36,007 bases of DNA from Caldilineae bacterium (GCA_011176555.1 DUEF01000006.1:1-36007), one strand, 5' to 3'. Positions 14,042 through 35,872 are shown, counted from the first letter of the stretch. Notes: generated from the letters alone by a model not told the origin. Translations and numbers: made by a program.

Positions 14042-16636
14042 ATGGATGTCATCCTTACGCACGAGCACACGGATTTCGATGCGCTGGCCAGTTTGCTAGC
14101 CGCCAGCAAGCTCTTTCCAGAGGCGATTCCGGTGCTCCCGCGCAATCTCAATCGCAATCTGCGCGATTTTTTGGTGCTCTACCGGGGCAGTTTGCCATTT
14201 CGGAGCGCCGACGAATTGCCGCGCCGCGCGGTGGAGCAAGCGATTTTCGTCGATACGCAAAGCGCGCAGGCCGTGCGGGGCATGAGCCACGGGACCCCGG
14301 TGCGCATCATCGATCATCATCCCCGCGAGCGTGATTTGCCTGAAAACTATCATTATTGGGGTGAAGCGGTCGGGGCCACCACCACACTGCTCTTGGAACA
14401 GATCATCAGTCGGGGCGTCACCATCACCCCGATCGAGGCGACGCTGCTGCTGTTGGGCATTTACGAAGACACGGGCAGCCTTTCTTACACCAGCACCACC
14501 GCCCGCGATATGCGTTGCGCAGCCTGGCTGCTGGAGCGAGGCGCCAACCTCGAAGTCGTCAACAGTTTTCTCCACCATCCTCTTTCACCCGCCCAGCAGC
14601 GCTTGCTCAAGCAGTTGAGCGACAATGCCGAGATGTTCGACATCGCCGGACATACGATCGTCATCGCCCAGGCGTTGGTGGAGGAGCGCGTAGACGAGAT
14701 CAGCACGCTGGCCCACAAATTGCGAGACCTTTTCGATCCCGATGGGCTTTTCCTGATCGTCGATCTGCAAGACCGCATCCAGGTCGTAGCCCGATCCACC
14801 ACCAGCCATATTCATGTCGGCGAAATCGCAGAACACCTCGGCGGGGGTGGCCATGCTCGCGCTGCCGCAGCGCTGATCCGGGATAAGGATCTGGCGGAAG
14901 TGCGCGCCGATCTTCTCTACTTGCTCAAGGAATACGTGCATCCCCCGATCACTGTCGGCCAGATCATGTCGTGGGGGTTGAACACGCTCTCGGCTGAGCT
15001 AACGGTGTCCGAAGCCGCACAACGCATGCGTCGCCTCGGCCATGAAGGCTTTCCCGTCGTCGATGAAAAGGGCGATCTGCAAGGGCTTGTCACTCGTCGC
15101 TTCATCGATCGAGCCCAGCATCATCACATGGATAAAGCGCCGATCCGGCGGATTATGCGCGTGGGCAGCGTGACAGTCAACGTCAATGATTCCGTACAGA
15201 CGTTACAGCAAGTGATGATGGAAAGCGGCTGGGGACAGATCCCGGTGGTGGACGAGCAAGGCGAAATGGTGGGGATTGTCACCCGCACGGACTTGCTCAA
15301 GCTCTGGGCCACGCCCGAAGATGAACTGTCGCCGCCCTCCCTGGCGTTGCGGATGGAAGCGGCGTTGCCCGGCGGGATGTTGCGTTTATTGCATCGCGTG
15401 GGCCAGGTGGCCTCGGAACTCGACTATCCATTGTACGCGGTCGGCGGTTTTGTGCGTGATTTACTGTTGGGTCGCCCGAATTTCGATGTAGATCTGGTGG
15501 TCGAGGGCGATGCCGCCGAACTGGCTACGAAGTTGGCCGAGGAATTCGGCGGCCGCGTGCGCCGGCACAAACGTTTTGGCACAGCCAAATGGATTCGCGA
15601 TGATGAGGCGTTCGCCGTAGGCGAGGCCCTATCGGATGACACGCCTTCCAGTCTGGATTTCGCCGGCGCGCGCACCGAGTTTTACGAGCAAGCCACCGCC
15701 CTGCCTGTGGTCGAACGGTCGAGCATCAAGCTGGATCTCCACCGCCGCGATTTCACCATCAACACGCTGGCGATTCGGCTGGACGGCTCGCATTGGGGGC
15801 GACTGCTCGACTTTTACGGCGGCCAGCGAGACCTGGAAGCGGGAATTATCCGCGTCTTGCATTCGCTCAGTTTTATCGAAGACCCCACGCGCATTCTGCG
15901 AGCGGTGCGTTTCGAACAGCGTTTCCAGTTTCAGATCGAACCCAGGACCGCCGAACTCATCCACGACGCCACCGATCTGCTGACGCGCGTGAGCGGCGCT
16001 CGCATTCGCCATGAACTGAATCTGATTTTGCAGGAAAGAAAACCGGAAGACGCTCTCAACCGCTTGCAAGAGCTTGCCGTATTGGCGCATATCGACGAGG
16101 CGCTTTCCTGGGATCATGACGCCTCGTCGAAGTTCAAAGCCCTGCGCGCCGCTTTACGCGAAGTGGACCATCGCCCGGAGCCCATCGAACGCCTGTACCT
16201 TGCTTTGTGGCTGTACCGTCTGAGCCCCGCCGCTCACAACCGTCTGATCGCCAATCTGCGGCTCAGTACGCGCACGCGTTCGCTGATCAAAGAAGGAGAG
16301 CAGTTGCGCGCGCTCACGACCGAACTCACTGCGCCCGACCTGCCGAACTCGCGTCTGGATCAATTGCTCCACACATTTAGCGATGGCGCTTTGCTGGTGG
16401 CCCGCATCGATTCGGACGACTGGGTGCTACGCAACCGCATCTTGGCCTACCAGACGCATCTGCGACCGCAGAAAATCTCGCTGACAGGCGAGCAGCTCAA
16501 AGCGTGGGGGGTTCGCCCGGGCCCCATTTATCGCGAGATCTTCCAGGCTGTGCGGGCCGCGCGTCTGGACGGTCGCATTAGCACTGACGAGGAAGAAATC
16601 AAACTGGCGCGTGCCCTGATCGACGACGGCATCTAA
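14042..16636 (+). CDS. Multidomain DHH-DHHA1 / CBS pair / poly(A) polymerase-CCA-adding nucleotidyltransferase fusion
   Basis: N-terminus LTHEHTDFDALAS with IIDHHP and GGGGHARAAAA (DHH/DHHA1). Two CBS repeats lie around aa 305-420. YAVGGFVRDLLLGRPNFDVDLVVEG and RRDFTINTLA mark the nucleotidyltransferase head. It starts 21 nt after arsM. Confidence 0.8.
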   Translation: MDVILTHEHTDFDALASLLAASKLFPEAIPVLPRNLNRNLRDFLVLYRGSLPFRSADELPRRAVEQAIFVDTQSAQAVRGMSHGTPVRIIDHHPRERDLPENYHYWGEAVGATTTLLLEQIISRGVTITPIEATLLLLGIYEDTGSLSYTSTTARDMRCAAWLLERGANLEVVNSFLHHPLSPAQQRLLKQLSDNAEMFDIAGHTIVIAQALVEERVDEISTLAHKLRDLFDPDGLFLIVDLQDRIQVVARSTTSHIHVGEIAEHLGGGGHARAAAALIRDKDLAEVRADLLYLLKEYVHPPITVGQIMSWGLNTLSAELTVSEAAQRMRRLGHEGFPVVDEKGDLQGLVTRRFIDRAQHHHMDKAPIRRIMRVGSVTVNVNDSVQTLQQVMMESGWGQIPVVDEQGEMVGIVTRTDLLKLWATPEDELSPPSLALRMEAALPGGMLRLLHRVGQVASELDYPLYAVGGFVRDLLLGRPNFDVDLVVEGDAAELATKLAEEFGGRVRRHKRFGTAKWIRDDEAFAVGEALSDDTPSSLDFAGARTEFYEQATALPVVERSSIKLDLHRRDFTINTLAIRLDGSHWGRLLDFYGGQRDLEAGIIRVLHSLSFIEDPTRILRAVRFEQRFQFQIEPRTAELIHDATDLLTRVSGARIRHELNLILQERKPEDALNRLQELAVLAHIDEALSWDHDASSKFKALRAALREVDHRPEPIERLYLALWLYRLSPAAHNRLIANLRLSTRTRSLIKEGEQLRALTTELTAPDLPNSRLDQLLHTFSDGALLVARIDSDDWVLRNRILAYQTHLRPQKISLTGEQLKAWGVRPGPIYREIFQAVRAARLDGRISTDEEEIKLARALIDDGI

Positions 16637-18190: not shown

Positions 18191-19750
18191 TTGACCGCTT
18201 ACCCCAGTATTTTCAACGATGTCATCGGCCCGGTGATGCGTGGCCCCTCCAGTTCGCACTGCGCGGCGTCGCTGCGGATTGGCCGGCTGTGCCGCGACCT
18301 CATGGCGGGCGATATCCAGGTCCTTCATATCGAGTTCGATCCCAATGGTTCTCTGGCGGCGACGCACAAAAGCCAGGGAGCCGATATGGGACTGTTTGGC
18401 GGCATCCTGGGTTGGGAGGCGGATGATGAACGACTGCCGGACTACGAAGCGCATATCCGCAGGGCCGGCGTCACCGTCACGTTGGACATCGTTGACATTG
18501 GCGCCACGCATCCCAACACCTACAAGCTGACGCTGGAGAACGACCGGGAAAGGAGATCGTTGATCGCGCTCTCGGTGGGGGGCGGCATGATCGAGATCAT
18601 CGAACTCGAGGGCGCTGAAGTCTCGATCAAAGGCGATTGTTACGAAACGCTCGTCTTCACGGATGCGCCGGACGCGGCGATGGCGCTTCTGCAGCAAACG
18701 GCGGCTTTTGACGAAGTCAAGTGGCGGCAGGGGGAATCTTGTTTTGTCGAAGTGCGTTCGCAGCAACTTTTGCCCGACCAGGTCATTGCGCAACTGCGGG
18801 GCCTGCCGGCGGTTGCTGCGGTCAGACAACTGGCGCCCGTTCTGCCGATCTTGACGAGACGCGACCTCGAAGCGCCCTTCATCACGTGCGCCGAGATGTT
18901 GGCCTACAATGAAAATAGAGGGCTGGCGCTGTGGGAGCTTGCAGTCGAGTACGAGAGCGTCCGGGGCGACATTCCCCCCGCGGAAGTCTACGACCGCATG
19001 GCGGCAATCGTTGCCATCATGCGCGCCTCACTCGAGCAGGGCTTGCAGGGAACCGAGTACGCGGATCGGATTTTGGGTTGTCAATCGTTGCAGTACAAAG
19101 CGCAAATGGAAAATGGAAGACTCCTATCTGGTGACGTCCTCAACACGATTATCCTGTATGTGACGGCGATGATGGAAGTGAAGAGTGCGATGGGTGTGAT
19201 TGTGGCCGCGCCCACGGCGGGAGCTTGCGCCGCGCTGCCCGGAGCCGTTTTAGGCGCGGCGACCGCCTTGAATCTGCCTGAAGAGGAAGCTGTCCGGGCC
19301 ATGTTGGCGGCGGGGATGATCGGCGTCTTCATCGCGGCCCACGCCACATTCGCGGCCGAGGTGGGCGGCTGTCAGGCTGAAACCGGCTCTGGTGCGGGCA
19401 TGGCCGCCGCGGCCATCGTCAGTTTGGCGCATGGAACCCTGGCGCAGGCGCTTTCCGCGGCTTCGGTGGCGCTGCAAAACTCCTTTGGCCTGGTCTGCGA
19501 TCCGATTGCGAACCGTGTAGAAGCGCCCTGCCTGGGCAAAAACGTGATGGCGGCGACGAACGCCCTTTCCTGCGCCAATATGGCCCTGGCCGATTACGAC
19601 CACCTTATTCCGCTGGATGAAGTGATCGGAGCCATGTATGAGGTCGGGAAAAGCATCCCGGTCGAGCTCCGTTGCACCGGGCTCGGAGGTCTTTCGACCA
19701 CGAAAACGGCGAAACGGATAGAGGAAAATCTGCGGAGCATTACACCGTAG
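18191..19750 (+). CDS. sdaA: Iron-sulfur-dependent L-serine ammonia-lyase (L-serine dehydratase), fused beta+alpha form
   Basis: SIFNDVIGPVMRGPSSSHCAASLRIG at the N-terminus, then AAPTAGACAALPG and EVGGCQAETGSGAGMAA cysteine motifs of the alpha domain. TTG start. Confidence 0.85.
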   Translation: MTAYPSIFNDVIGPVMRGPSSSHCAASLRIGRLCRDLMAGDIQVLHIEFDPNGSLAATHKSQGADMGLFGGILGWEADDERLPDYEAHIRRAGVTVTLDIVDIGATHPNTYKLTLENDRERRSLIALSVGGGMIEIIELEGAEVSIKGDCYETLVFTDAPDAAMALLQQTAAFDEVKWRQGESCFVEVRSQQLLPDQVIAQLRGLPAVAAVRQLAPVLPILTRRDLEAPFITCAEMLAYNENRGLALWELAVEYESVRGDIPPAEVYDRMAAIVAIMRASLEQGLQGTEYADRILGCQSLQYKAQMENGRLLSGDVLNTIILYVTAMMEVKSAMGVIVAAPTAGACAALPGAVLGAATALNLPEEEAVRAMLAAGMIGVFIAAHATFAAEVGGCQAETGSGAGMAAAAIVSLAHGTLAQALSAASVALQNSFGLVCDPIANRVEAPCLGKNVMAATNALSCANMALADYDHLIPLDEVIGAMYEVGKSIPVELRCTGLGGLSTTKTAKRIEENLRSITP

Positions 19751-19760
19751 ACGACGCGAC

Positions 19761-19789
19761 TTGAAGTTTTTTTTCTTTTCGGTCATAAT
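19761..19789 (+). promoter_or_regulatory. Candidate sigma70-type promoter (TTGAAG-17-CATAAT) for the SNF2 operon
   Basis: Hexamers and 17-nt T-rich spacer read directly, located just after the sdaA stop. Confidence 0.35.
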
Positions 19790-19979
19790 AGGGCTGAGCA
19801 TTCTTGGTGATTGCGCCATCTTGTGATGATGGCGTTATCGGTGGAACTAGTCACTTACACAATCTGGTGTCCGTGGAAAGCGTGGTGTAGCCTGTGTCCA
19901 CGGTTTCCTCGTTTCCCCCGAAGCGCGGTGCGTTTGCTCAGTCGCACTCATTAAAACGCCATGCGCCGCGCCCTCGAGA

Positions 19980-22900
19980 ATGAGTTTGAACGTGATGCAA
20001 TCCACGACGTGGATAAACCACACCTCGCCGTTTGAAGATGCTGCATTTATGGTGATTCACCTACAGTGGCATCTGCCTGCGCGCACTGAGGATGAACCCT
20101 ATTTCCTCTTGTGGGGGGAGACTGCCGACGCGGAGCCGCCTAAACGACAACGGGGACGACTCGCGGCGAAGCCGCGTCCCAAACCGCATCCTTATGCTAT
20201 CCAGTCCCCAAGCCTTTTGCGTAGATTGCTTCAGCAATTCGATCCGACCCTCATTTCACAGGGGACAGAGACTCTGACTCTCCTTTTGCCTTCCACCCGA
20301 ACTGGGCCTTTGCCCAGCCCCGCGCTCATTCATCCCTGGGACATCGATCAGCAAGCGCCGAGGTTAGCGCCCTGGCAGATCACATCTCTGCGTCTGCCCT
20401 TATCCACTGCTACAGAATTGCTCAACAAAATCGACGCCTGCGAATGCCCGGAGCGCGTTGTGCTGGGGGTCGACATGCGCTACTGGCGGCAGGCATTCAA
20501 TTTGGTGCTGGAAGCCTTAACCCAGCAACTCTATGTGCCCGCCATTACGACTCAGGAATCTCAAGCGGACGTCTACGCGGCCACCTGGCAATTCGTATTC
20601 GACGCCTCACCCTTTCGAGAATCCCTGATCGCCATGGCTCAGGCGATGCCTCCACTCTGCCGGAGTGAAGTGACCGAAGAGGGAACAGAACGATCTGCTC
20701 TGACGTTGCTGAAAGCGTTCATTCAGTATACCGGCGATTACTTGATCCGCTCCTGGGGAGATAACGCCCCCCACCGCATAAGCTACCTCCATAATCACAA
20801 CAACACCACAACCTGGTTGAAATCCCTTTTAGCCGAGCCGACTATCCTGGACGCAAGCAGCCAAATGCGCAGTTTCGCCAGCGCTGTGCAGACCTGGCAA
20901 CAGAACCTGGCCCCGGCAGGCAGCGCGAACTACACCATCGCCTTACGCCTGGTTCCGCCCGCGCACAGTGACGACAACGGCCACCTGCACGTGCCAGAAG
21001 GGGGGTGGCGTCTGGAGTACATGCTGCAGGCGCGTGACGATCCGAATTTGCTCATACCGGCCAGCCTGGTGTGGCAAGCGCAGGATGAGAACCCGGTCTA
21101 TCAGCAGCGCCGATTCAAACGTCCGCAAGAGAAACTACTCAAGGCGTTGGGGCGAGCGGTTTACGTCTTTCCACCCATCGAACGCAGCCTGCAAGAGCCC
21201 ACCCCCACTGGCGTGGAACTGGCGACGACCGAAGTCTACCACTTTTTGCGCGAAGCGGCTCCGCTCCTGGAACAAAGCGGCTTTTCGCTGATTCTGCCCT
21301 CCTGGTGGGAAGAAGCGGGCGCCCGATTGGCCTTGCGACTCTTCCTCACGCCGCTCACGCCGAAACCGCCCGATCTCGTTAGCGATCCCGAAAGTGGAGA
21401 AAAGCCCATCGCCTATCGTTGGGAGTTGGTGCTGGGAGAAACAACACTCACGCAAGAAGCATTCGCCGATCTCGTTGCGCTGCGTTCACCGCTGGTGCAA
21501 AAGGGAAACCGTTGGCTGCGCCTGGATCCGGAACAAATCGAAGCAGCCAGACGTTTCTGGAAGCGCCACAGTTTTGAAGGGCGACTGGATCTTCAGCAAG
21601 CCTTGCGCGCTGCCCTGGGTTTAGATAAACACGTCGACATTGCTGGTCTGCCCATTTACAAAGTCATCGCCGAAGGCTGGCTGCCTGAGTTGATCAAGCG
21701 CCTGAGCGAGGGCGATGACCAGTTGCGAAATGCAGACCAACCCGCAGAATTGGCTGGAGAACTGCGCCCGTACCAACGTTTTGGCTACGCCTGGCTGCGT
21801 GCACATCGTCAACTGGGTCTGGGAGCCTGTTTGGCGGACGACATGGGCCTCGGCAAAACAATTCAAACGATCGCCCTGCTATTGCAAGAGCATGTGACGT
21901 TAAAGCGGAGCGCAGCGCCATCGCTGTTGGTTTGCCCGACCTCCCTACTGGGCAACTGGCGCCGTGAATTCGAGCGTTTTGCGCCCGATTTGCGGGTTTT
22001 CAGCCATTACGGAGCAGATCGGGCTGGTAAGGACGCCTTTGCCGCCAGCGTCTCTTCGTTCGATGTCATCCTCACCAGTTACACTTTAGCGCGGCGAGAC
22101 GCCGAGCTTTTCCATGATTTCCAATGGCATGGCCTTATACTCGACGAAGCGCAGAAGATCAAAAACCCAGACGCCCTCACGACGAAGGCCATCTACGTCA
22201 TCCCCTCCCAGTTTCGCATCGCCCTGACTGGCACCCCCGTTGAAAACCGCTTATCCGAACTTTGGTCGATTTTCCACTTCCTGAATCGGGGCTACCTGGG
22301 CAGTCTGTCCAGTTTTCGTAAGAATTTCGCCTTGCCCATCGAACGCTATCACGACCCGGTGGCTATGTCCCGCCTTCAGCGCATGGCTCGACCTTTCATC
22401 CTGCGCCGCCTCAAGAGCGATCCCGCCGTCATCCAGGACCTGCCGGAACGGTTGGATATGAAGGTGTACTGTACGTTGGCGCACGAACAGGCGGCGCTCT
22501 ATCAGGCTGTGGTGGAAGAAGGACTGCCGCGCATCGTCGATAGCCGGGGACGCGCCCGGCGCATACACGTCTTCAATTTACTCACCCGCCTGAAACAGAT
22601 CCTCAACCATCCCGATTTGTACCAACACCCACCTGAATCCGACTACCGGGCGTCCGTGCAAACATTGGCCGAACCTTTTGCCCAACGCAGCGGCAAACTC
22701 GATCGTCTCAGCGCCATGCTGGAAGAAGTCCTCGACATCGGAGACCGCTCGCTCATTTTCACGCAGTTCGCCGAAACCGGAAACCTGTTGACCACCTACC
22801 TACAAAAACGTTTCGATCACCCTGTGTTTTACATGCACGGCGGCGTCCCCACTAAAAAGCGACAAGAGATGGTGATGCGCTTCCAGGAAGATCCCAACGC

Positions 22901-23225
22901 CCCACACATCTTCGTTTTGACGTTGGGCACAGGGGGATTGGGCTTGAATCTGACCGCGGCCAACCATGTTTTCCACTTTGATCGTTGGTGGAACCCTGCG
23001 GTCGAGGATCAAGCCAGCGACCGCACCTATCGCATCGGCCAAACCCGCAACGTACAAATCCACAAATTCATCACGGCCGGCACGGTTGAAGAAGCCATCG
23101 ACGAAATGATAGAGCGCAAGCGTGGCCTGGCCGAGGCTATCGTTGGCGCTGGCGAGGGTTGGGTGGCGAATCTTTCCGACGACGAGTTGGCCGATCTCGT
23201 GCAATTGCGTAAGGATAGGATGTAA
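19980..23225 (+). CDS. SNF2/Rad54-family ATPase with ~560-aa N-terminal SNF2-associated region
   Basis: Helicase motifs: LADDMGLGKT (I), LILDEAQKIKN (II), LTGTPVENR (III), SLIFTQF, GGLGLNLTAANHVFHFDRWWNPAVEDQASDRTYRIGQ (V/VI). An alternative start ATG at 20049 (MVIHLQWH...) is plausible. Confidence 0.85.
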   Translation: MSLNVMQSTTWINHTSPFEDAAFMVIHLQWHLPARTEDEPYFLLWGETADAEPPKRQRGRLAAKPRPKPHPYAIQSPSLLRRLLQQFDPTLISQGTETLTLLLPSTRTGPLPSPALIHPWDIDQQAPRLAPWQITSLRLPLSTATELLNKIDACECPERVVLGVDMRYWRQAFNLVLEALTQQLYVPAITTQESQADVYAATWQFVFDASPFRESLIAMAQAMPPLCRSEVTEEGTERSALTLLKAFIQYTGDYLIRSWGDNAPHRISYLHNHNNTTTWLKSLLAEPTILDASSQMRSFASAVQTWQQNLAPAGSANYTIALRLVPPAHSDDNGHLHVPEGGWRLEYMLQARDDPNLLIPASLVWQAQDENPVYQQRRFKRPQEKLLKALGRAVYVFPPIERSLQEPTPTGVELATTEVYHFLREAAPLLEQSGFSLILPSWWEEAGARLALRLFLTPLTPKPPDLVSDPESGEKPIAYRWELVLGETTLTQEAFADLVALRSPLVQKGNRWLRLDPEQIEAARRFWKRHSFEGRLDLQQALRAALGLDKHVDIAGLPIYKVIAEGWLPELIKRLSEGDDQLRNADQPAELAGELRPYQRFGYAWLRAHRQLGLGACLADDMGLGKTIQTIALLLQEHVTLKRSAAPSLLVCPTSLLGNWRREFERFAPDLRVFSHYGADRAGKDAFAASVSSFDVILTSYTLARRDAELFHDFQWHGLILDEAQKIKNPDALTTKAIYVIPSQFRIALTGTPVENRLSELWSIFHFLNRGYLGSLSSFRKNFALPIERYHDPVAMSRLQRMARPFILRRLKSDPAVIQDLPERLDMKVYCTLAHEQAALYQAVVEEGLPRIVDSRGRARRIHVFNLLTRLKQILNHPDLYQHPPESDYRASVQTLAEPFAQRSGKLDRLSAMLEEVLDIGDRSLIFTQFAETGNLLTTYLQKRFDHPVFYMHGGVPTKKRQEMVMRFQEDPNAPHIFVLTLGTGGLGLNLTAANHVFHFDRWWNPAVEDQASDRTYRIGQTRNVQIHKFITAGTVEEAIDEMIERKRGLAEAIVGAGEGWVANLSDDELADLVQLRKDRM

Positions 23226-23228
23226 TCT

Positions 23229-24014
23229 GTGACACGCGAAAATGCCGTCAATTGGGCTGACGCCTGGATTGAAGCGCTGGAAGCCTTCTCTCAACCAGGG
23301 CGTATGCGTCGCGGGCGCCGGTTCGCAGCGCGCAACAAAATCCGTCGTCTGGAAATCAACCCCGGCGAAGTGCGCGCTAAAGTCAAGGATAGCGGAGAAA
23401 CCTACCAGGTGCACATTCGTGTCGAATTACTGGACGACGCCTCGTGGGAAAAGATCATCGACAAACTCGCTAGCCAGGCGCTCTACAGCGCCAAACTCCT
23501 TTCGGGAGAAATCCCTCCCGAGGTCATCGCCGTTTTCGACGAGGTCGGCGCTTCGCTTTTCCCTACAGACGAAGCTTTACATGCCAGTTGCACCTGTCCC
23601 GATTGGGAAGTTCCCTGCAAGCATGTTGCCGGCGTTTATTACCAACTGGCCGAAGAATTCGAGAAGAATCCTTTCTTGCTCTTTTATCTGCGCGGGCGGG
23701 GCAAAGAGGATTTTCTCTCCGCTCTGCGTCAGCAGCGCCAGGCCACCGACCGCGATATTCTCGATGATGAAGAAATTTTCCCATCACCGCCGCTCGCCGA
23801 AGTGCTCGACATCTTTTGGGACATCGGCCCTGGCATGGACGACATCCGTTTTCATATTGCCCCACCCGGCACTGCGCTCCCCCACCTCAAACGCCTTGGT
23901 CCTCCCCCCTTTACAAAACTCGACCTTGTCGACGTCCTTTCGCCCATCTACGACACCGTCACAGACACCGCACTAGACTGGGCATACCCCAAATCCCAAA
24001 AAGCACATGACTGA
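23229..24014 (+). CDS. SWIM zinc-finger family protein
   Basis: CTCPDWEVPCKHVAGV fits the CxCxnCxH SWIM signature. GTG start lies 3 nt after the SNF2 stop. Confidence 0.8.
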   Translation: MTRENAVNWADAWIEALEAFSQPGRMRRGRRFAARNKIRRLEINPGEVRAKVKDSGETYQVHIRVELLDDASWEKIIDKLASQALYSAKLLSGEIPPEVIAVFDEVGASLFPTDEALHASCTCPDWEVPCKHVAGVYYQLAEEFEKNPFLLFYLRGRGKEDFLSALRQQRQATDRDILDDEEIFPSPPLAEVLDIFWDIGPGMDDIRFHIAPPGTALPHLKRLGPPPFTKLDLVDVLSPIYDTVTDTALDWAYPKSQKAHD

Positions 24015-25818
24015 AACCGCCATCAAAGCCATCCAAGAGCAACTCTTCCGCCATTTCACCCGTTTCGATATCGCGGCGCTACGCGCCCTGCTGGAGATCG
24101 TGGGCCATCCCAATCCCAGCGCGCCCAGACGGGATGAAGCGATTTTTTATTTGATCGATCACCTCGGCAGTAAAGCGGCGTTACGCAAACTGTGGCCCAG
24201 GCTGGACCCGCTCACCCAACAATCGTTGAGCCTGACCGTTCACGCTACGGGAGGCGTCTACCAACCCGAAACCATACGCTTGCGTTATGGCAAAACACCC
24301 CCTGAACCGCAACGCTATTGGAGCGGCTACATTCCCACAGCGCTCGATCTTTTCCTAGACGAAGACAAAGTCATTCTCACGGAATTATTGCCCTTGCTGC
24401 GGGTGGTTGCGCCCAAACCAGAACCCTGGAAGATCCCCACCCAACCAGAACCCCCGCCCCGTTACGAATCCATTGGCTTTGAGCGCAGTCCGGATCCGGG
24501 CGTAGGCTTGCAAGATCTTTCCACCGTCCTGGCCTTGATCGGGCAGGAACGCATTCTGGTGAACGATCGCATGATCCCCACCTTCGACAGCATCCAACTG
24601 GTGCTCGACCGTCTGGTTGATGGCGATTTCAACGCCTTGGGGTCAGGCCAGGATCTGAGTGAAACCATCCGGCCTGTGGGGTTGGTGCGCTTCGCCCTGG
24701 GCAGCGGCATGGTTACACTGGGCGGACGCAGCGGTTACAACACCACGTTGCAGCTCAAACCCCTGGGCTGGGAATGGCTGGCGCATCCCAGCGCCGACCT
24801 CCTGCTCGATGCCCTGGAAACTTGGATGCACAGTGATTTCTACGATGAACTGGATCGGCTGACGCATTTGCGAGACGCCCAAAAACAGAGCGACGCCCGC
24901 ACGCCGCCCAGCAAGCGCCGGGACCGCATTCTCGAAGCTCTATCGTGGTGTCCGCAGGGCGCTTGGCTCAGCGTGGATGACTTCTTCCAGGCCATCAAAT
25001 TATGGCAATTCAATTTTGAGGTGGCGACCGACGGGACGCTGAACGCCATCGATGACAGCACCGGGCGCAAACTCAGCATCAGCGAACTCAAAGATCCCTG
25101 GCGAGCCGTGCAAGGTGCGTACATCCAGGTGATTTTGATGGAGATTCTGGGCAGCATCGGCGCGCTCGAATTGGCTTACACCGCGCCTCAGCACGCCCCG
25201 CCCTTCCTCGAAACCCCCACCGAAAGCTGGCAACGCCCAGTCCAACCTTACAGCCGCTACGACGGGCTCACGTACTTTCGTATCAACGATCTTGGCGCTT
25301 ATCTTTTTGGGCACACCAATCGCTATTCCATTCCCGCCGTCTGTACCGAGTCTATTTATTACATTGACGAAGATCTCGGATTTCATGCCGTTCGTAAAAC
25401 CCTGCGACCCTATCAAAAAGAAATTATCCCCTTGTTGGGTACACAGGGCAAGAGAAAAAGATATTACCTCGATAAGGCTTTCTGGCTGCGGGCGCAACAA
25501 ACCGAGGGAACATTGAAGGCTCGGCGCGAATTGTTGCAAGCGCGACATGATGGCCCTCTCTCTCCGGTCGTGGAAGATTGGCTTGACCAATGCCAGGCCG
25601 ATAGCACCGCGCTGCGCCGCGGACGCACTATGATCACCATTCAGGCGCGCAGGCCCGAAGTGCGCAACGCCATTCTCGAAGATCCCGAACTGCGTCGCTA
25701 CGCCCGCCTGCTCGATGACCGCACCCTGATCATTCCCAGTTCTCGCGAACACGCCTTTATGCGCAAGGTGTTGGAGTTGGGCTACGGTATGGTCGGGGGC
25801 AGTGTGGACAGCAAGTAG
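24007..25818 (+). CDS. Hypothetical 603-aa protein, possibly helicase-associated domain protein
   Basis: The ATG overlaps the SWIM stop by 8 nt (translational coupling). I recognise no catalytic motif. The C-terminal ARLLDDRTLIIPSSREHAFMRKVLELGYG is reminiscent of XPB-partner helicase-associated domains (weak recollection). Confidence 0.6.
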   Translation: MTETAIKAIQEQLFRHFTRFDIAALRALLEIVGHPNPSAPRRDEAIFYLIDHLGSKAALRKLWPRLDPLTQQSLSLTVHATGGVYQPETIRLRYGKTPPEPQRYWSGYIPTALDLFLDEDKVILTELLPLLRVVAPKPEPWKIPTQPEPPPRYESIGFERSPDPGVGLQDLSTVLALIGQERILVNDRMIPTFDSIQLVLDRLVDGDFNALGSGQDLSETIRPVGLVRFALGSGMVTLGGRSGYNTTLQLKPLGWEWLAHPSADLLLDALETWMHSDFYDELDRLTHLRDAQKQSDARTPPSKRRDRILEALSWCPQGAWLSVDDFFQAIKLWQFNFEVATDGTLNAIDDSTGRKLSISELKDPWRAVQGAYIQVILMEILGSIGALELAYTAPQHAPPFLETPTESWQRPVQPYSRYDGLTYFRINDLGAYLFGHTNRYSIPAVCTESIYYIDEDLGFHAVRKTLRPYQKEIIPLLGTQGKRKRYYLDKAFWLRAQQTEGTLKARRELLQARHDGPLSPVVEDWLDQCQADSTALRRGRTMITIQARRPEVRNAILEDPELRRYARLLDDRTLIIPSSREHAFMRKVLELGYGMVGGSVDSK

Positions 25819-25854
25819 CGCGTCCATCTCAAATCAATCATAGGAGTTTGTTTG

Positions 25855-26055
25855 ATGATGATAAAGGCCTCTTGCCCCTACTGCCACAACCGTTGGCTTC
25901 TTACCGACGAAACCATCGCCCTGGCAATCGAGAATAGCCCCAAGAAGGGGCGTAGCATCGGTGTGGAATGTCCGCGTTGCCGCAAACTTGTCAAGGTGGC
26001 GCGCCCCAAGCGTCCGCCGGCCCCGCCTCCGCAAGAAGAAGCGGAAGCAGGATAA
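25855..26055 (+). CDS. Small zinc-ribbon protein with Pro-rich acidic tail
   Basis: CPYC...18 residues...then CPRC form two CxxC pairs. AGGAG at 25842-25846 lies 8 nt before ATG 25855 (the ORF track begins at TTG 25852). Confidence 0.5.
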   Translation: MMIKASCPYCHNRWLLTDETIALAIENSPKKGRSIGVECPRCRKLVKVARPKRPPAPPPQEEAEAG

Positions 26056-26098
26056 AACGCAACCGCCTTCGGTCAACAGATGGTCGGGGGCGGTTTTA
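26054..26098. terminator. Possible bidirectional terminator in the convergent gap
   Basis: AACCGCC (26061-67) pairs with GGCGGTT (26089-95), flanked by AAAA upstream and TTTT downstream. The loop is long (21 nt), so confidence is modest. Confidence 0.35.
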
Positions 26099-26171: not shown

Positions 26172-26954
26172 CTACTTTCCCTGGAACGCCGGTTTCCGCT
26201 TTTGGAGGAATGCAGCTACGCTCTCCTTGTGGTCGGCGGTCTGCGCAGCGATGTCCTGCACCTGCGCCTCGTATTCGAGAGCGTCGGCCAGTGAGAGCGA
26301 GGCGGCTTTGTTCAGCACGCGCTTGGTCAGGCCGATGCCTTTGGTCGGGCCCAAGGCAAACTGGCGGGCGAGAGCGTGCACGGTCGGGTTCAGATCTGCG
26401 GCCGGGACCACCTGGTTCACCAAGCCCAGGCGCAGCGCTTCTTCAGCGCCCACCTTCTGACCGGTGGCCATGAGCTCGAACGCTTTCGCTGGCCCCACCA
26501 ACTGCTGCAAAAACCAACTCACGCCACTATCTGGGGCCAGGCCGATACCGATAAAGGCGGTGGTCAATGACGCTCGCTCGGAGGCAACTCGCAGGTCGGT
26601 GGCCAGAGCGATGCCCAATCCCGCGCCAGCGGCCACGCCGTTGATCTTGCCAATGACCGGTTTTTCCAGCGCTCGCAACGCCAAAATAACGCGATTATAA
26701 CCCTGTCGCACATGATCCCCGACCGTCAAAGACGCTTCCGCTGTCAGAAATTCCGTCAGATCCTGCCCGGCGCTAAATCCTCGGCCCGCGCCGGTGAGCA
26801 CCACACAGCGCACGGCATCGTCGCTGGCGCATTGTTTGAGCGCCGCCAACAGTTCCCTGGTCATCGTCACCGTAAAGGCGTTGAGCCTGTCCGGACGATG
26901 AAGGGTGATGGTGGCGATGTTGTCGGTGATTTCTGTGAGGATGGTTTTGGGCAT
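26172..26954 (-). CDS. Enoyl-CoA hydratase/isomerase (crotonase) family protein
   Basis: ITLHRPDRLNAF...VVLTGAGRGFSAGQDL...INGVAAGAGLGIALATDLRVA is the crotonase fold. ATG at 26954 (MPKTILTEI) is preferred to the ORF-track start at 27035, which lies in a repeat. Confidence 0.85.
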   Translation of the reverse strand: MPKTILTEITDNIATITLHRPDRLNAFTVTMTRELLAALKQCASDDAVRCVVLTGAGRGFSAGQDLTEFLTAEASLTVGDHVRQGYNRVILALRALEKPVIGKINGVAAGAGLGIALATDLRVASERASLTTAFIGIGLAPDSGVSWFLQQLVGPAKAFELMATGQKVGAEEALRLGLVNQVVPAADLNPTVHALARQFALGPTKGIGLTKRVLNKAASLSLADALEYEAQVQDIAAQTADHKESVAAFLQKRKPAFQGK

Positions 26955-26965
26955 GATGTTCGGGG

Positions 26966-27035
26966 GGATATTGGATATTGGGTATTGGCGGTGACGTGAA
27001 TACCCAGTATCAATATCTAATACCCAGATATCCAA
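26966..27035. repeat. Heptanucleotide repeat block arranged as an imperfect inverted repeat
   Basis: GGATATT GGATATT GGGTATT (26966-86) faces AATACCC..AATATC..AATACCC AGATATCC (26999-27033). GGGTATT/AATACCC pair across a 12-nt loop. Confidence 0.65.
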
Positions 27036-27680
27036 TCACTTCCTGCCATTCAGTTGAAAAAACTGCTCGGCCACCTCAATCATCTGCTCCTGTGTGGCCA
27101 GCATACGCCAATCTTTGACTGTGCTGATGGAGGTGTCGGCGACGCCTTTGACCGGTCGCACCCAGCTCATGATGTAACCGGTGATGGCGGCTTCGTCGTC
27201 GGAAAGTAGCAACATGCTAAGATCGGCGTCGTAGCTGTGATAGGTGCGCAATAGCCATACGGGTTTGACATGAGGATGTTCGGGCAGAGACCAGATGGCG
27301 TCGAACGCCGCGCGGTCATAGCCGGGCGTCAACACGATGCGAACCGTGGCGGCGAACAGGCCGCGATTCCCGGCGGCGGCAATGGGGATGTCCATCAGAT
27401 GTGCGATGTGCGCCATGCCGCCAAAGGAGAGGGCGGCGCGGGTGCCGATCACGCCGAGAGCGTCGCGCACAACATCAATCAAAAAATCATCCAGCCGGTG
27501 CAACTCCGAAACCAGGCAGACAATTCGCAAATCGGCGCGAGCGCGCAGCCAATTGACCCACAAGGGCGTCACACAGGGGCCATCGTAGTTTTGCAGGCGT
27601 TCCAACACTTCCTCGCGCGCGATTTCGTCTTGGCCGCTGCGTATGTTGGCATCGATAATGGCGATGGTGCCATTGCTCAT
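27036..27680 (-). CDS. Hypothetical protein with two Lrp/AsnC-ligand-binding (RAM)-like half-domains, no HTH
   Basis: Two segments, RIVCLVSELHRLDDFLIDVVRDALGVIGTRAALSF and YDADLSMLLLSDDEAAITGYIMSWVRPVKGVADTSISTV, resemble RAM/AsnC_trans_reg repeats. GAGAGGA SD lies upstream. Confidence 0.45.
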   Translation of the reverse strand: MSNGTIAIIDANIRSGQDEIAREEVLERLQNYDGPCVTPLWVNWLRARADLRIVCLVSELHRLDDFLIDVVRDALGVIGTRAALSFGGMAHIAHLMDIPIAAAGNRGLFAATVRIVLTPGYDRAAFDAIWSLPEHPHVKPVWLLRTYHSYDADLSMLLLSDDEAAITGYIMSWVRPVKGVADTSISTVKDWRMLATQEQMIEVAEQFFQLNGRK

Positions 27681-27753
27681 TGGTCAATTCCTCTCAGTTG
27701 GTGTGTGTGCGGAAAGTTGTGAGAAGGTTGCGATCTGAAACGATGTCCAGCAA

Positions 27754-28011
27754 TCAGTCGGCGCCTGAGTCGTACGGGATGTCGACTGGCAACGCATCGA
27801 TCACCTGATAAGATTCGATCTCGTCAAGGCCGTCGTCGTCCAACGGCGCTTGCAAGGTGTATTCCGCCTCGATTACGTCTGCATCCGCCCGGCGGCGGTG
27901 GGTGGTGATCTTGATGCTGTTACGCAACAGCAAAACCAGCGCCGCCAGACCAAAGATGACGATGAGGAAGGAAAGGCAGATGAAGAAAAGGATGGCGGTA
28001 ATCGGATTCAT
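27754..28011 (-). CDS. Small single-pass membrane protein with acidic C-terminal tail
   Basis: 85 aa with TM ITAILFFICLSFLIVIFGLAALVLLL, then RRRADAD and an Asp/Glu-rich tail. Its GGGAG SD lies inside the last codons of the upstream ATPase gene, and the start is 6 nt after that stop. Confidence 0.5.
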   Translation of the reverse strand: MNPITAILFFICLSFLIVIFGLAALVLLLRNSIKITTHRRRADADVIEAEYTLQAPLDDDGLDEIESYQVIDALPVDIPYDSGAD

Positions 28012-28017
28012 CGGGGG

Positions 28018-30564
28018 CTACTCCCAGGCCGGAACGCGATCATGCGTGAGGCGACCGCGTGCTGATTCATAGCCGATCTCCCAGTAGGGCAGCCAGGCCA
28101 ACGCCACCAAATCTACATCGATGTCAGCGCGGCGGGGTTTGACGAAGTAAGGCTCGATATGATCCAGGGTGTCGGCCCACTCCTCGGTGATTTGCTCCGC
28201 CTCCTGGGCGATGGTCTGCTGCACCTCTTCCATTTCTTCCTGAAGACGGGCGATTTCCTGCTTGGATTCTTCGATGTCGGCTTTGGCCCTTGCGGTCATG
28301 CGGCGTTTGGTGGCGGCGGTGGATAAGGATCGTTTCCGTCCGAAGATGCCAAACAAACCGGCCACGGTCTCTGCACCCGACACGATCTCCTCCATCTTGC
28401 GCGCGTCGTAATCGGCTTCATCCTCAGCTAACTCGCGCTCTTCTCGTTCCAACCTCGTTTCCAATTTATCCAATTGCCTGCGATATTTCTTGCGCATTTT
28501 GTCCACTTCATCGTCTCGCTTTTCCCGCGCAGCTTGCTGCATCCGCACTTTGAAATCTCGCTCCGACTCCCCCGGCCTGCTGTACATTTTGAGCACAGGA
28601 TTGTAGAGCAATTGCAAGCGCTGTTCGTGGTAGAGCCAATCGGAGAAATCTTTGGCGTACGATTTGAGCTCGCGCGTGCTGTTCAAGTCTTCCGGCACGA
28701 CGCCGAAAATAGCGTCCTCTTGCGGTCGCCTGTCCAGATCACCGGCATCGAGATCGATGGACGTTGCGTCTTCCCAGCGAATGACCGAACCGAGATCGTT
28801 GGCTTGCACCAATTTGCCGACGGGGAGCGTCTCATTGACCTTGCGGGTGCGGTCCACAAAGCTGGCGCTTCCCAGTGCGATCAGGGCGGGTTCATACACC
28901 AGATTCGTCTCTTTCACGTCCAGACGCTGATCCAATTCGTCTTCCAAGATGGCCAAGGCCCGGTTGGGACTCAAGCGCAGGGGCAGGAAGGTCTGGGGCA
29001 ATTCCGGAGGCAGGGCGGGCGGCGTGTCGCTGTAACCAGGCGGCAGGTCGGGTTCAGGTTCGGCGGCCGGAGGGACGACTGTGGCCGGTTTCACGTCTCG
29101 GGCTACGGCGGGGCGCGGCGTAGCCGCGGGGGCGGCTTCCAGCTCCAATTCGTCTTTGCGCTCCACCATCAGCTTGCGCACCTGGCTGCGGGTGAGCGGT
29201 CCGCGCAGGTAACTCATCGCCCAACGGGTGTTGTAGATGACAGGTTCGTCTTCGTGGACGTTGTGCAACAGAAAAACGCGGGAATCCAGACCCGAGATGA
29301 GGTTATCCAACTCGCGACGGTTCAAAGCGCCGCCTGCCGCAGACGCCGATTCCAGGCCATCCAACACTCGCGCTTTGTCCCGCTCCGTCTGCAATTTGCC
29401 GATGAACCAGGTGCCGGCGTTGCTCAGGCCCTTGTAATCGAGGTCCACCGGATTCTGGGTGGTGAGCATCATGCCCACGCCGAATGCACGCGCCTGTTTC
29501 ATCAGGGTGAGCATCGGTCTTTTCGAGGGGGGATTGGCCGTGGGCGGGAAGAAGCCGAACACTTCATCCATGTAGATGAGCGCTCGCAGGCTGGTGGTGC
29601 CGGATTGCTGGCGCATCCAGATGACGACTTGCTCCAGCAGCAGGGTGACGAAAAACATGCGTTCGGCGTCGCCGAGATGGGCGATGTAGAAAATGCTGTG
29701 GCGGGGCTTGCCCGAGGGCGTATGCAACAAACTGGCGATGTCCAGGGGCTGCCCTTCCAGCCATGAGGCGAAACTGGGCGATGCCATGATGTTATTCAGG
29801 AGCATCGCCAATTTGAAGCGCTCTTTTTCGGGATAGAATGTGTCTACATCGAACACGCCCAACTGACGCACGGGGGGATTCTGGATGGCGGTAATCAGTT
29901 TGGCCAGATCGAGATCCTCGCCCCGTCGCCATGCGTATTCGAAGATATTGGAAAGCAGGATGTGTTCCTGGCTTTGCAAGGGATCGGCGTCGATATCCAC
30001 CAAACCCAACAGAGCGCTAACTGTGCCCTGAATTTGTTCTCGCAAGACCTCTTCGTGATCATCCCAATTCAACGCTGGGGCTTTGAGCGAGGACAGGATG
30101 GATACTGGTATGCCTGCATCGGAGCCAGGCGTGTAGATGACGAATTCGGCGCTGTTTTTGAGCATGCGAATGCGTTCTGGCCCCTCACCCCAACCGGCCA
30201 GACCGTTGCGCCAGGTGTCGGCGATCTTGCGGGCATAGTCGGCTACTGACATGCTTTTGCGCCGGGCGTCGTCTACATTCACCCAGGGCTCGAAATCCTC
30301 TGGGCGCAGTTCGGGAAAGGTGAGCAACAGGTTGGTGATGTCACCCTTGGGGTCGATGATGAGGGCCGGCACATTATCGATGGCAGCTTCTTCCAATAGA
30401 TCGATGCACAGGCCGGTTTTCCCTGATCCGGTCATGCCGACGCAGACAGCGTGCGTGGTGAGGTCGCGAGCATCATACATCACCAGATCATCGGTGATCT
30501 CGCCCGCTTTGAGATCGTATTCTTTGCCCAGATAAAAGGCGCCGAGTTTTTCAATGGGTTGCAT
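28018..30564 (-). CDS. HerA/FtsK-like P-loop ATPase (DUF87-like) with Pro-rich linker and long C-terminal coiled coil
   Basis: LTTHAVCVGMTGSGKTGLCIDLLEE (Walker A after a HerA-like barrel lead-in), LRALIYMDEVFGFFP (Walker B), Pro-rich PPAAEPEPDLPPGYSDTPPALPPELP, and heptad-like KRDDEVDKMRKKYRRQLDKLETRLEREERELAEDEADYDARK. Confidence 0.75.
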   Translation of the reverse strand: MQPIEKLGAFYLGKEYDLKAGEITDDLVMYDARDLTTHAVCVGMTGSGKTGLCIDLLEEAAIDNVPALIIDPKGDITNLLLTFPELRPEDFEPWVNVDDARRKSMSVADYARKIADTWRNGLAGWGEGPERIRMLKNSAEFVIYTPGSDAGIPVSILSSLKAPALNWDDHEEVLREQIQGTVSALLGLVDIDADPLQSQEHILLSNIFEYAWRRGEDLDLAKLITAIQNPPVRQLGVFDVDTFYPEKERFKLAMLLNNIMASPSFASWLEGQPLDIASLLHTPSGKPRHSIFYIAHLGDAERMFFVTLLLEQVVIWMRQQSGTTSLRALIYMDEVFGFFPPTANPPSKRPMLTLMKQARAFGVGMMLTTQNPVDLDYKGLSNAGTWFIGKLQTERDKARVLDGLESASAAGGALNRRELDNLISGLDSRVFLLHNVHEDEPVIYNTRWAMSYLRGPLTRSQVRKLMVERKDELELEAAPAATPRPAVARDVKPATVVPPAAEPEPDLPPGYSDTPPALPPELPQTFLPLRLSPNRALAILEDELDQRLDVKETNLVYEPALIALGSASFVDRTRKVNETLPVGKLVQANDLGSVIRWEDATSIDLDAGDLDRRPQEDAIFGVVPEDLNSTRELKSYAKDFSDWLYHEQRLQLLYNPVLKMYSRPGESERDFKVRMQQAAREKRDDEVDKMRKKYRRQLDKLETRLEREERELAEDEADYDARKMEEIVSGAETVAGLFGIFGRKRSLSTAATKRRMTARAKADIEESKQEIARLQEEMEEVQQTIAQEAEQITEEWADTLDHIEPYFVKPRRADIDVDLVALAWLPYWEIGYESARGRLTHDRVPAWE

Positions 30565-35795: not shown

Positions 35796-35872
35796 CGGGG
35801 CGTAGCGCAGCTCGGTAGCGCGCTTGAATGGGGTTCAAGAGGTCGGGCGTTCGAATCGCCCCGCCCCGACCA
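35796..35872 (+). tRNA. tRNA-Pro (anticodon GGG), CCA encoded
   Basis: Manual cloverleaf:
- acceptor CGGGGCG/CGCCCCG
- D arm GCGC-AGCUCGGUA-GCGC
- anticodon stem CUUGA/UCAAG with loop AU-GGG-GU
- variable AGGUC
- T arm GGGCG-UUCGAAU-CGCCC
- discriminator A, then CCA. Confidence 0.9.

Follow-up and report, generated by a model that had tools for sequence, protein, structure and literature searches.

What does a bacterial SNF2 ATPase do when its gene is packed together with those of a small SWIM zinc-finger protein and a third, larger partner? The SNF2-SWIM pair is known in bacteria, where it has reportedly been noted since the SWIM domain was first described, but it is uncharacterised and has no established mechanism. 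We analysed a stretch of 36,007 nucleotides (nt) from a Caldilineae bacterium (GCA_011176555.1 DUEF01000006.1:1-36007), referred to at its full length as the window, in which the region 19761-26098 holds four co-directional open reading frames (ORFs) packed in the order SNF2, SWIM, a gene for a protein of 603 amino acids (aa) and a zinc-ribbon ORF. An initial annotation of this DNA took the four genes for one operon and proposed that it serves as a nucleic-acid surveillance or remodelling module or as a repair system. Here we show that three of the four genes form a translationally coupled and conserved unit, and that the 603-aa protein, which had been left without recognised features, is predicted to share the fold of the TFIIH subunit p52/Tfb2.

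Results

SNF2, SWIM and 603-aa genes form one conserved unit

The SNF2 gene (19980-23225, plus strand, 1081 aa), of the HelZ type by its Pfam domains, is followed on the same strand by the SWIM gene (23229-24014, 261 aa, GTG start, PF04434) and by the 603-aa gene (24007-25818), which is p52/Tfb2-like as judged from an AlphaFold2 (AF2) model searched with Foldseek and from PF13625 matches in its family. The SNF2 stop codon TAA (23223-23225) is separated by TCT from the SWIM GTG at 23229, a gap of 3 nt, and GGATAGGA stands a short way 5' of this GTG. The SWIM stop and the 603-aa start overlap by 8 nt, with ATGACTGA as their common sequence, and 36 nt lie between the 603-aa stop and the ATG of the zinc-ribbon ORF, with AGGAG 8 nt before that ATG. 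Direct reading thus confirmed every position, gap and overlap that the initial annotation had given for the four packed genes. SNF2, SWIM and the 603-aa protein come from a single, translationally coupled unit.

A homologue search with the 603-aa protein returned 74 relatives, all unnamed or 'hypothetical'. When one genome for each GTDB species was scanned, 80 loci emerged, and these were compared with the window proteins by tblastn. A closer group of 72 of the 80 loci shows 28-87% identity to the 603-aa protein, and 68 of these are evaluable, that is, they have room upstream for a SWIM gene. The SWIM gene lies directly upstream of the 603-aa homologue in 64 of the 68, and the SNF2 gene is found in the same order at every syntenic locus with sufficient upstream DNA; independent metagenome contigs display the same SNF2-SWIM-603-aa order. 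Membership of the 603-aa gene, which the initial annotation had made to depend on synteny with SNF2-SWIM in related genomes, therefore holds. The four exceptions are orphan 603-aa homologues, one of them just downstream of a gene for a protein with helix-turn-helix (HTH), NB-ARC and TPR domains. In the latter case (locus L038, 899-5064), the orphan begins 30 nt after this HTH-NB-ARC/AAA-TPR (STAND-type) gene, with neither SNF2 nor SWIM. The carriers of the module belong to Chloroflexota (Caldilineales, Anaerolineae and Ardenticatenaceae) and to Actinomycetota (Rubrobacter-type metagenome-assembled genomes (MAGs), and one that is unclassified); one further carrier MAG is probably mis-binned.

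The three proteins have also diverged together. Across 45 loci, their distance matrices are correlated (overall r = 0.75-0.94; r = 0.78-0.98 when clades are taken separately), and SNF2, SWIM and the 603-aa protein share one deep split into clades A and B (17 and 28 loci). Some MAGs hold a full module of each clade; in one of them, the two modules (L015 and L073) show identities of 47/44/35% for SNF2, SWIM and the 603-aa protein. Because single MAGs hold a complete module of each clade, the module has duplicated and diverged as a whole. In Chloroflexota and Rubrobacter-type Actinomycetota, these results show a SNF2-SWIM-603-aa unit that is conserved, co-diverges and has been duplicated in its entirety.

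Several MAGs carry two or three copies of the 603-aa gene each (L015/L073, L028/L039 and L052/L063/L065), for which MAG contamination is possible. SNF2-SWIM accompanies each 603-aa copy where the contig extends upstream; the contig of L028 ends at the 603-aa gene, and L065 is without the SNF2 region. The copies in L052 and L063 are closer to each other than the L015-L073 pair, at 85/85/76% identity (SNF2/SWIM/603-aa). At another locus (L067, 11668-14016), a second, shorter SNF2-family helicase of 782 aa with an N-terminal zinc ribbon begins 24 nt past the point at which the tblastn alignment with the 603-aa homologue stops.

The 603-aa gene might instead be functionally independent and a chance neighbour of the SNF2-SWIM pair. 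The four orphan homologues would fit this view, as would the wider HelZ-type family, in which the sampled loci (described below) have two genes only. Against it stand the 8-nt overlap of the SWIM stop and the 603-aa start, the synteny in 64 of 68 loci over two phyla, and the congruent clade split, correlated divergence and duplication of the entire module, and we give a chance association almost no credence.

The 603-aa protein has a p52/Tfb2-like predicted architecture

The AF2 model of the 603-aa protein is of high confidence (predicted local distance difference test (pLDDT) score 89, predicted template modelling (pTM) score 0.81). When it was compared with the PDB by Foldseek, the top 19 matches, among them the p52-p8 crystal structure 6trs, were all TFIIH p52/Tfb2 chains (about 410-630 aligned columns; E 1.5e-6 to 1.5e-2, 14 of the 19 at E <= 1e-3; probability 0.98-1.00). 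XPB chains came next in the list, with about 155-180 aligned columns and a probability of up to 1.0. A search with the yeast Tfb2 sequence confirmed that the matched chains are p52/Tfb2. When searched against the viral structure library BFVD, the same model found nothing better than E 0.29, and the p52 matches are thus not explained by generic winged-helix similarity. A nuclease role like that of Bax1, the archaeal XPB partner, was considered and rejected, as the top 50 fold matches do not include this protein.

Family-level evidence points in the same direction. PF13625, the XPB/Ssl2 N-terminal domain family, is matched by 21 of 27 family members (best E 1e-9), and the family profile, when compared with the PDB, matched the N-terminal domain (NTD) of human XPB at aa 453-564 (E 0.09) and the SAP domain 2rno at aa 10-77 (E 6e-4). 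Three parts can accordingly be distinguished in the protein, all on the plus strand: a SAP-like N-terminus (aa 10-77, nt 24034-24237) defined by the profile match to 2rno; a centre rich in predicted winged helices between the SAP-like and clutch-like parts, as seen with AF2 and Foldseek; and an XPB-NTD- or 'clutch'-like C-terminal domain (aa ~453-564, nt 25363-25698) supported by profile and fold. The centre (aa ~270-435) is the part best conserved across both clades. In p52, winged-helix domains at the N-terminus are followed by a clutch (residues 306-399) that shares its fold with the XPB NTD and by a C-terminal domain that binds p8 (Greber et al., 10.1101/507723); the winged-helix and clutch-like parts of the 603-aa protein stand in the same order. 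At the level of predicted fold and of family, then, the 603-aa protein is shown to have the p52/Tfb2 architecture, winged helices followed by a PF13625-type clutch. The model also gave a local Foldseek match to Tfb5 (5oqj_5; E 1.6, probability 0.98 over 57 columns); the operon contains no p8-like gene, and the adjacent small ORF encodes a zinc ribbon.

Distant relatives are encoded beside bacterial XPB

In Competibacteraceae and other Gammaproteobacteria, in a proteobacterial MAG, in a spirochaete and in cyanobacteria, more distant relatives of the 603-aa protein, at 25-27% identity and, in L001-L003, with about 90% query cover, have their genes directly next to that of XPB, in some cases on plasmids; on an Acaryochloris plasmid, for example, the pair annotated as 'hypothetical protein' and 'DNA repair helicase XPB' consists of a 603-aa relative and XPB. 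In these pairs, the partner upstream of XPB is a full-length 603-aa homologue that carries PF13625, as in the family at hand, whereas the helicase is XPB (ResIII and ERCC3_RAD25_C) in place of the SNF2 motor of the window, and no SWIM gene accompanies it. Judged by sequence, the 603-aa protein is a paralogue of the partner encoded beside bacterial XPB.

The family as a whole is large. When 1.84 billion representative proteins were searched with the family profile, 853 clusters (50% identity) were recovered at E <= 1e-30 and 2688 at E <= 1e-10, with members annotated as 'hypothetical' or 'helicase-associated domain-containing'. Plasmid matches to the 603-aa protein are all at 19-26% identity, and of the two inspected, one is XPB-linked and one is an orphan. 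The orphan is a p52-like gene of 25% identity (L089, 5962-7737) on the conjugative plasmid pPNAP01 of Polaromonas naphthalenivorans, flanked by an AAA ATPase with a double-strand-break-repair Gene Ontology (GO) term and by a Hachiman pair of HamA and a DEAD/DEAH helicase. On a cyanobacterial contig (L085, 2489-6156), two tandem p52-like paralogues adjoin an XPB gene fragment.

The motor and its SWIM partner are of the HelZ type

In the SNF2 protein, Pfam identifies DUF3670 (PF12419, aa 408-546, E 1.2e-31), SNF2-rel_dom (PF00176, aa 598-880, E 1.8e-66) and Helicase_C (PF00271, aa 912-1020, E 1.2e-18). About 590 aa thus stand N-terminal to the ATPase core, which bears out the long non-helicase region of ~560 aa that the initial annotation had described. 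The best PDB sequence match, the Sulfolobus SNF2/Rad54 core, is restricted to aa 587-1076. The N-terminal 590 aa recover DUF3670-SNF2 proteins in a homologue search, among them 'helicase HelZ [Mycobacterium sp.]' (P0100; E 5e-43, 29% identity, 90% coverage), and the protein is, by these sequence matches, HelZ-type, with DUF3670 plus an SNF2 core. The top full-length NCBIfam model is the SCO1167/SCO6262 helicase, with 690 bits against a cut-off of 1200, and the sll1366 equivalog reaches 353 bits against 550; because both scores are below the cut-offs, the protein represents a distinct subfamily of HelZ-type proteins. An AF2 model of aa 1-600 (pLDDT 82.7) gave no significant PDB fold match by Foldseek, RapA included (best E 0.013, probability 0.08). 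With regard to the start codon, 16 of 23 aligned SNF2 homologues begin at or within three residues of M24 of the window protein (ATG 20049), a few others begin further downstream, and the 23-aa N-terminal extension is kept in the closest relative only, at lower identity than the remaining protein. Because most homologues begin at the equivalent of M24, the true SNF2 start may be ATG 20049 rather than 19980.

The SWIM protein matches PF04434 (E 8.5e-6) and carries the motif CTCPDWEVPCKH at nt 23589-23624; the C-x-C...C-x-H residues of this motif, intact in the window protein, are at least 95% conserved over 63 homologues. No sequence relative of the protein was found in the PDB. Candidate SWIM-603 or SNF2-SWIM fusions were rejected, since the long 'SWIM' ORFs reflect upstream over-extension in another reading frame.

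The pairing of SNF2 and SWIM genes, which the initial annotation had noted in other bacteria, holds for HelZ. At the Mycobacterium HelZ locus (L087), the next gene encodes a 270-aa protein with 40% identity to aa 9-166 of the window SWIM protein, and no related gene comes after it; on a metagenome contig (L088), SNF2 is followed by SWIM and then by an extracytoplasmic function (ECF) sigma factor, with no third module gene. Both sampled HelZ-type loci thus display a two-gene arrangement. Given the HelZ match and the adjacent SWIM-like gene, the window locus belongs to the known kind of SNF2-SWIM pair. It shares with the type of HelZ (M. tuberculosis Rv2101) and YwqA the order of an N-terminal region, DUF3670, SNF2 core and Helicase_C, as well as the SWIM gene directly downstream, whereas the p52-like gene, joined through an overlapping start, is an addition that L087 and L088 lack. 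Bacillus subtilis YwqA (with YwqB) may belong to the same family.

The zinc-ribbon ORF and signals flanking the operon

The fourth ORF (25855-26055, plus strand) encodes 66 aa from its ATG, with a TTG at 25852, and contains two CxxC pairs; Pfam gives merely sub-threshold zinc-ribbon matches. A homologue follows the operon in only five close relatives (L007, L008, L009, L011 and L027). As all four cysteines are kept in these, the ORF is probably a genuine small gene. No other locus with a complete 603-aa homologue and 400 nt or more of downstream DNA has it, not even those of relatives at 66-75% identity; the genes that follow at such loci are unrelated and in many cases convergent, and code for instance for an amidohydrolase or a NuoM-like protein. 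Two clade-B metagenome contexts are also without it.

The initial annotation had counted this gene, given as 67 aa, as a member of the unit, and the full four-gene set could in principle be the functional assembly, as the ORF is co-directional, lies 36 nt downstream with AGGAG before it and a hairpin after it, and retains its four cysteines in the five close relatives. Its absence even from loci of 66-75% identity and from the clade-B contexts, where unrelated and often convergent genes take its place, makes this reading very improbable. As the gene is confined to five close relatives, the conserved unit has three genes, not four: the four-gene operon stands for the window and its closest relatives and fails elsewhere. 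The zinc-ribbon ORF is a lineage-specific, recent addition outside the conserved module, probably co-transcribed with it in this lineage.

Two signals were said to bracket the operon, and both are present. A promoter-like TTGAAG-17-CATAAT (19761-19789, plus strand) agrees with the consensus at 9 of 12 positions and begins 10 nt past the stop of the upstream serine dehydratase gene; as the consensus scan found 6 such sites in the region against 2.2 expected, it argues only weakly for a promoter. A terminator-like hairpin of 15 pairs followed by TTATGTT (26061-26095, plus strand) lies in the convergent gap. Terminator-like sites are not enriched in the region (9 against a shuffle expectation of 8.2), and it is the position of the hairpin alone that is suggestive of a terminator. 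No Rfam RNA element was found in or around the operon.

Genomic context and the question of defence

The genes that flank the operon in the window have housekeeping or metabolic products, namely a methyltransferase, a DHH-CBS-poly(A)-polymerase/CCA-type enzyme, two Yip1-domain proteins, a serine dehydratase, an enoyl-CoA hydratase and PPK2. The upstream block of CCA enzyme, Yip1, Yip1 and SNF2 is kept in eight relatives, with SNF2 identity down to 60%, and this conservation indicates a stable chromosomal position rather than a variable island. Within the block, the serine dehydratase gene (18191-19750) appears to be an insertion in the window, as the Yip1-Yip1 pair directly precedes SNF2 in the eight relatives. 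The CCA-type enzyme (14042-16636) is an 864-aa fusion of a DHH/DHHA1 phosphoesterase, a CBS pair and a poly(A)-polymerase/CCA-type nucleotidyltransferase, and is kept upstream of the module in relatives. On the other side, a run of four co-directional genes (26172-30564, minus strand) converges on the operon. Its first gene encodes 848 aa with weak matches to HerA/FtsK/CedB-like ATPases (PADLOC HerA 1e-9; NCBIfam CedD 5e-8, far below the cut-off), and the others are an 85-aa ORF, a gene for a 214-aa protein without matches and the enoyl-CoA hydratase gene; this run may be a separate, uncharacterised ATPase module. The sole RNA gene detected in the window is a tRNA-Pro(GGG) at 35796-35872.

SNF2 ATPases are components of several defence systems, and the operon could be an unnamed anti-phage or anti-plasmid system centred on an SNF2 translocase, in the manner of Zorya II, DISARM and Dpd, with the SWIM and p52-like proteins acting as sensors or adaptors. 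The high scores of the SNF2 core against the PADLOC models of ZorD and DpdE appear to favour this. However, the ZorD, DpdE and DrmD models align to the generic ATPase core only (aa ~570-1076), and the NCBIfam scores are far under the curated cut-offs (ZorD 273 bits against 1500, DrmD 96 against 950, DpdE 48 against 500). Zorya ZorD, Dpd DpdE and DISARM DrmD therefore have the SNF2 ATPase core in common with the window protein, whereas their nuclease and other domains and their partner genes are absent from the locus. The Zorya, DISARM, Dpd and BREX partner genes were not found in the window, as the initial annotation had stated, nor does any defence gene adjoin the unit there. Moreover, searches of Pfam, PADLOC and NCBIfam revealed no nuclease, toxin or other effector domain in the SNF2, SWIM or 603-aa protein.

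Other features that would suit a defence system are the two or three paralogous module copies in some MAGs, the orphan homologue directly after the HTH-NB-ARC-TPR STAND gene (L038), the distant orphan beside Hachiman on a conjugative plasmid, and the XPB-linked relatives on plasmids near transposases. However, the upstream neighbourhood is kept across eight relatives, unlike that of a variable defence island, and no relatives were found in phage genomes, IMG/VR contigs or BFVD. An association of the module with mobile elements was likewise rejected, given the lack of phage, IMG/VR or BFVD matches and the low identity (19-26%) of the plasmid matches. Taken together, these observations make a defence function unlikely. 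Of the roles first proposed for the operon, surveillance or defence is little supported, as there is no effector, the flanks are housekeeping and viral relatives are missing; remodelling or repair is the better reading of the comparisons made here.

Discussion

In TFIIH, the clutch of p52 and the N-terminal domain of XPB form a pseudo-symmetric dimer that recruits XPB and helps to stimulate its ATPase (10.1101/507723). By analogy, we consider it rather probable that the window locus encodes a three-subunit complex, a double-stranded DNA (dsDNA) translocase with a p52-like docking or regulatory subunit, that works in transcription-linked genome maintenance. In such a complex, the 603-aa protein would dock on the SNF2 motor, either directly or via the SWIM protein, and would tune the ATPase and translocation of this motor in the way p52 acts on XPB, while its own SAP-like and winged-helix parts would probably touch DNA. 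The SWIM protein may be the universal small partner of this SNF2 family. As the three proteins contain no nuclease, toxin or other effector, the complex would most likely translocate on DNA or displace or remodel DNA-bound proteins, in chromosomal genome maintenance linked to transcription. Such an output would resemble the RNA-polymerase-associated role proposed for B. subtilis YwqA, a poorly characterised SNF2 translocase that associates with RNA polymerase (PMC3797733, PMC7385302, PMC12448304).

The comparison with TFIIH has its likenesses and its differences. Both XPB-p52(-p8) and the window locus combine a superfamily 2 (SF2) dsDNA translocase with a partner of p52 architecture that includes a clutch of the XPB-NTD fold. 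However, the motor of TFIIH is XPB, whereas that of the window is an SNF2 ATPase in which no XPB-NTD-like domain was detected; the 603-aa protein has no sequence-level match to p52/Tfb2; a p8/Tfb5-like gene is lacking at the locus; and the module has in addition a SAP-like N-terminus and a SWIM subunit. RapA/HepA is another useful comparison, as a bacterial SNF2 ATPase without an effector domain that plausibly works on DNA-bound protein complexes, like the window SNF2. Yet the latter scores only 38 bits against the NCBIfam RapA cut-off of 576, and its aa 1-600 have no RapA-type fold match. RapA is not known to have a SWIM or a p52-like partner.

Several observations weigh against a p52-like translocase complex. 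The likeness of the 603-aa protein to p52 is structural, seen in a predicted model, and has no counterpart at the sequence level: the window protein itself matches no Pfam, NCBIfam or PADLOC model, and so lacks a Pfam hit of its own; its family has no Tfb2 Pfam match; hhalign of the family against yeast Tfb2 gave no significant match, although its sole alignment falls within the clutch and keeps the register of the XPB motif; and the family profile, searched against the PDB at E up to 10, found the XPB N-terminal domain and the SAP domain only, and no p52. The TM-scores of the model against p52/Tfb2 are also low (0.2-0.4), as may be expected of a flexible multi-domain protein with its domains arranged differently. 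Furthermore, neither Foldseek nor hhalign revealed an XPB-NTD-like domain in the N-terminal region of SNF2, nor did hhalign reveal one in the SWIM protein, and the clutch-like region is the least conserved part of the 603-aa protein within the SNF2-linked clade. The best hhalign candidate for such a partner domain (SNF2 aa 244-363 against 603-aa residues 466-580; E 0.014, probability 3%) was rejected as evidence. Because an XPB-NTD-like partner domain is missing and the clutch is poorly conserved, the 603-aa protein may contact the motor in another way or via its central domains. The paralogous copies and the orphans beside the STAND gene and Hachiman, mentioned above in connection with defence, also count on this side.

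We further propose, more tentatively than for the complex itself, that the bacterial p52/Tfb2-like family as a whole regulates SF2 dsDNA translocases, XPB in some lineages, and that it was re-deployed onto the HelZ-type SNF2-SWIM pair in Chloroflexota and Rubrobacteria, in analogy with the XPB-p52 lobe of TFIIH. According to a 2012 paper, bacteria had yielded no p52 homologue (PMC3353954), and the function of bacterial XPB was still called elusive in a 2026 review. A literature search that covered few subscription journals found neither bacterial p52-like proteins nor DUF3670 proteins described, nor the three-gene arrangement, and it brought up nothing of relevance on SNF2 combined with SWIM.

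In summary, the conserved p52-like third subunit is a new addition to the known SNF2-SWIM pair, and a subunit with a recognisable fold makes this pair experimentally approachable. The family suggests that a p52-type partner can switch between motors, as it is the neighbour of XPB in some lineages and of SNF2 in others, and this has implications for how the XPB-p52 module of TFIIH arose. If the proposed re-deployment of the family is real, docking and regulation of the p52 type would be older and more modular than TFIIH, and the mechanism of the uncharacterised SNF2-SWIM pair would become accessible for the first time.

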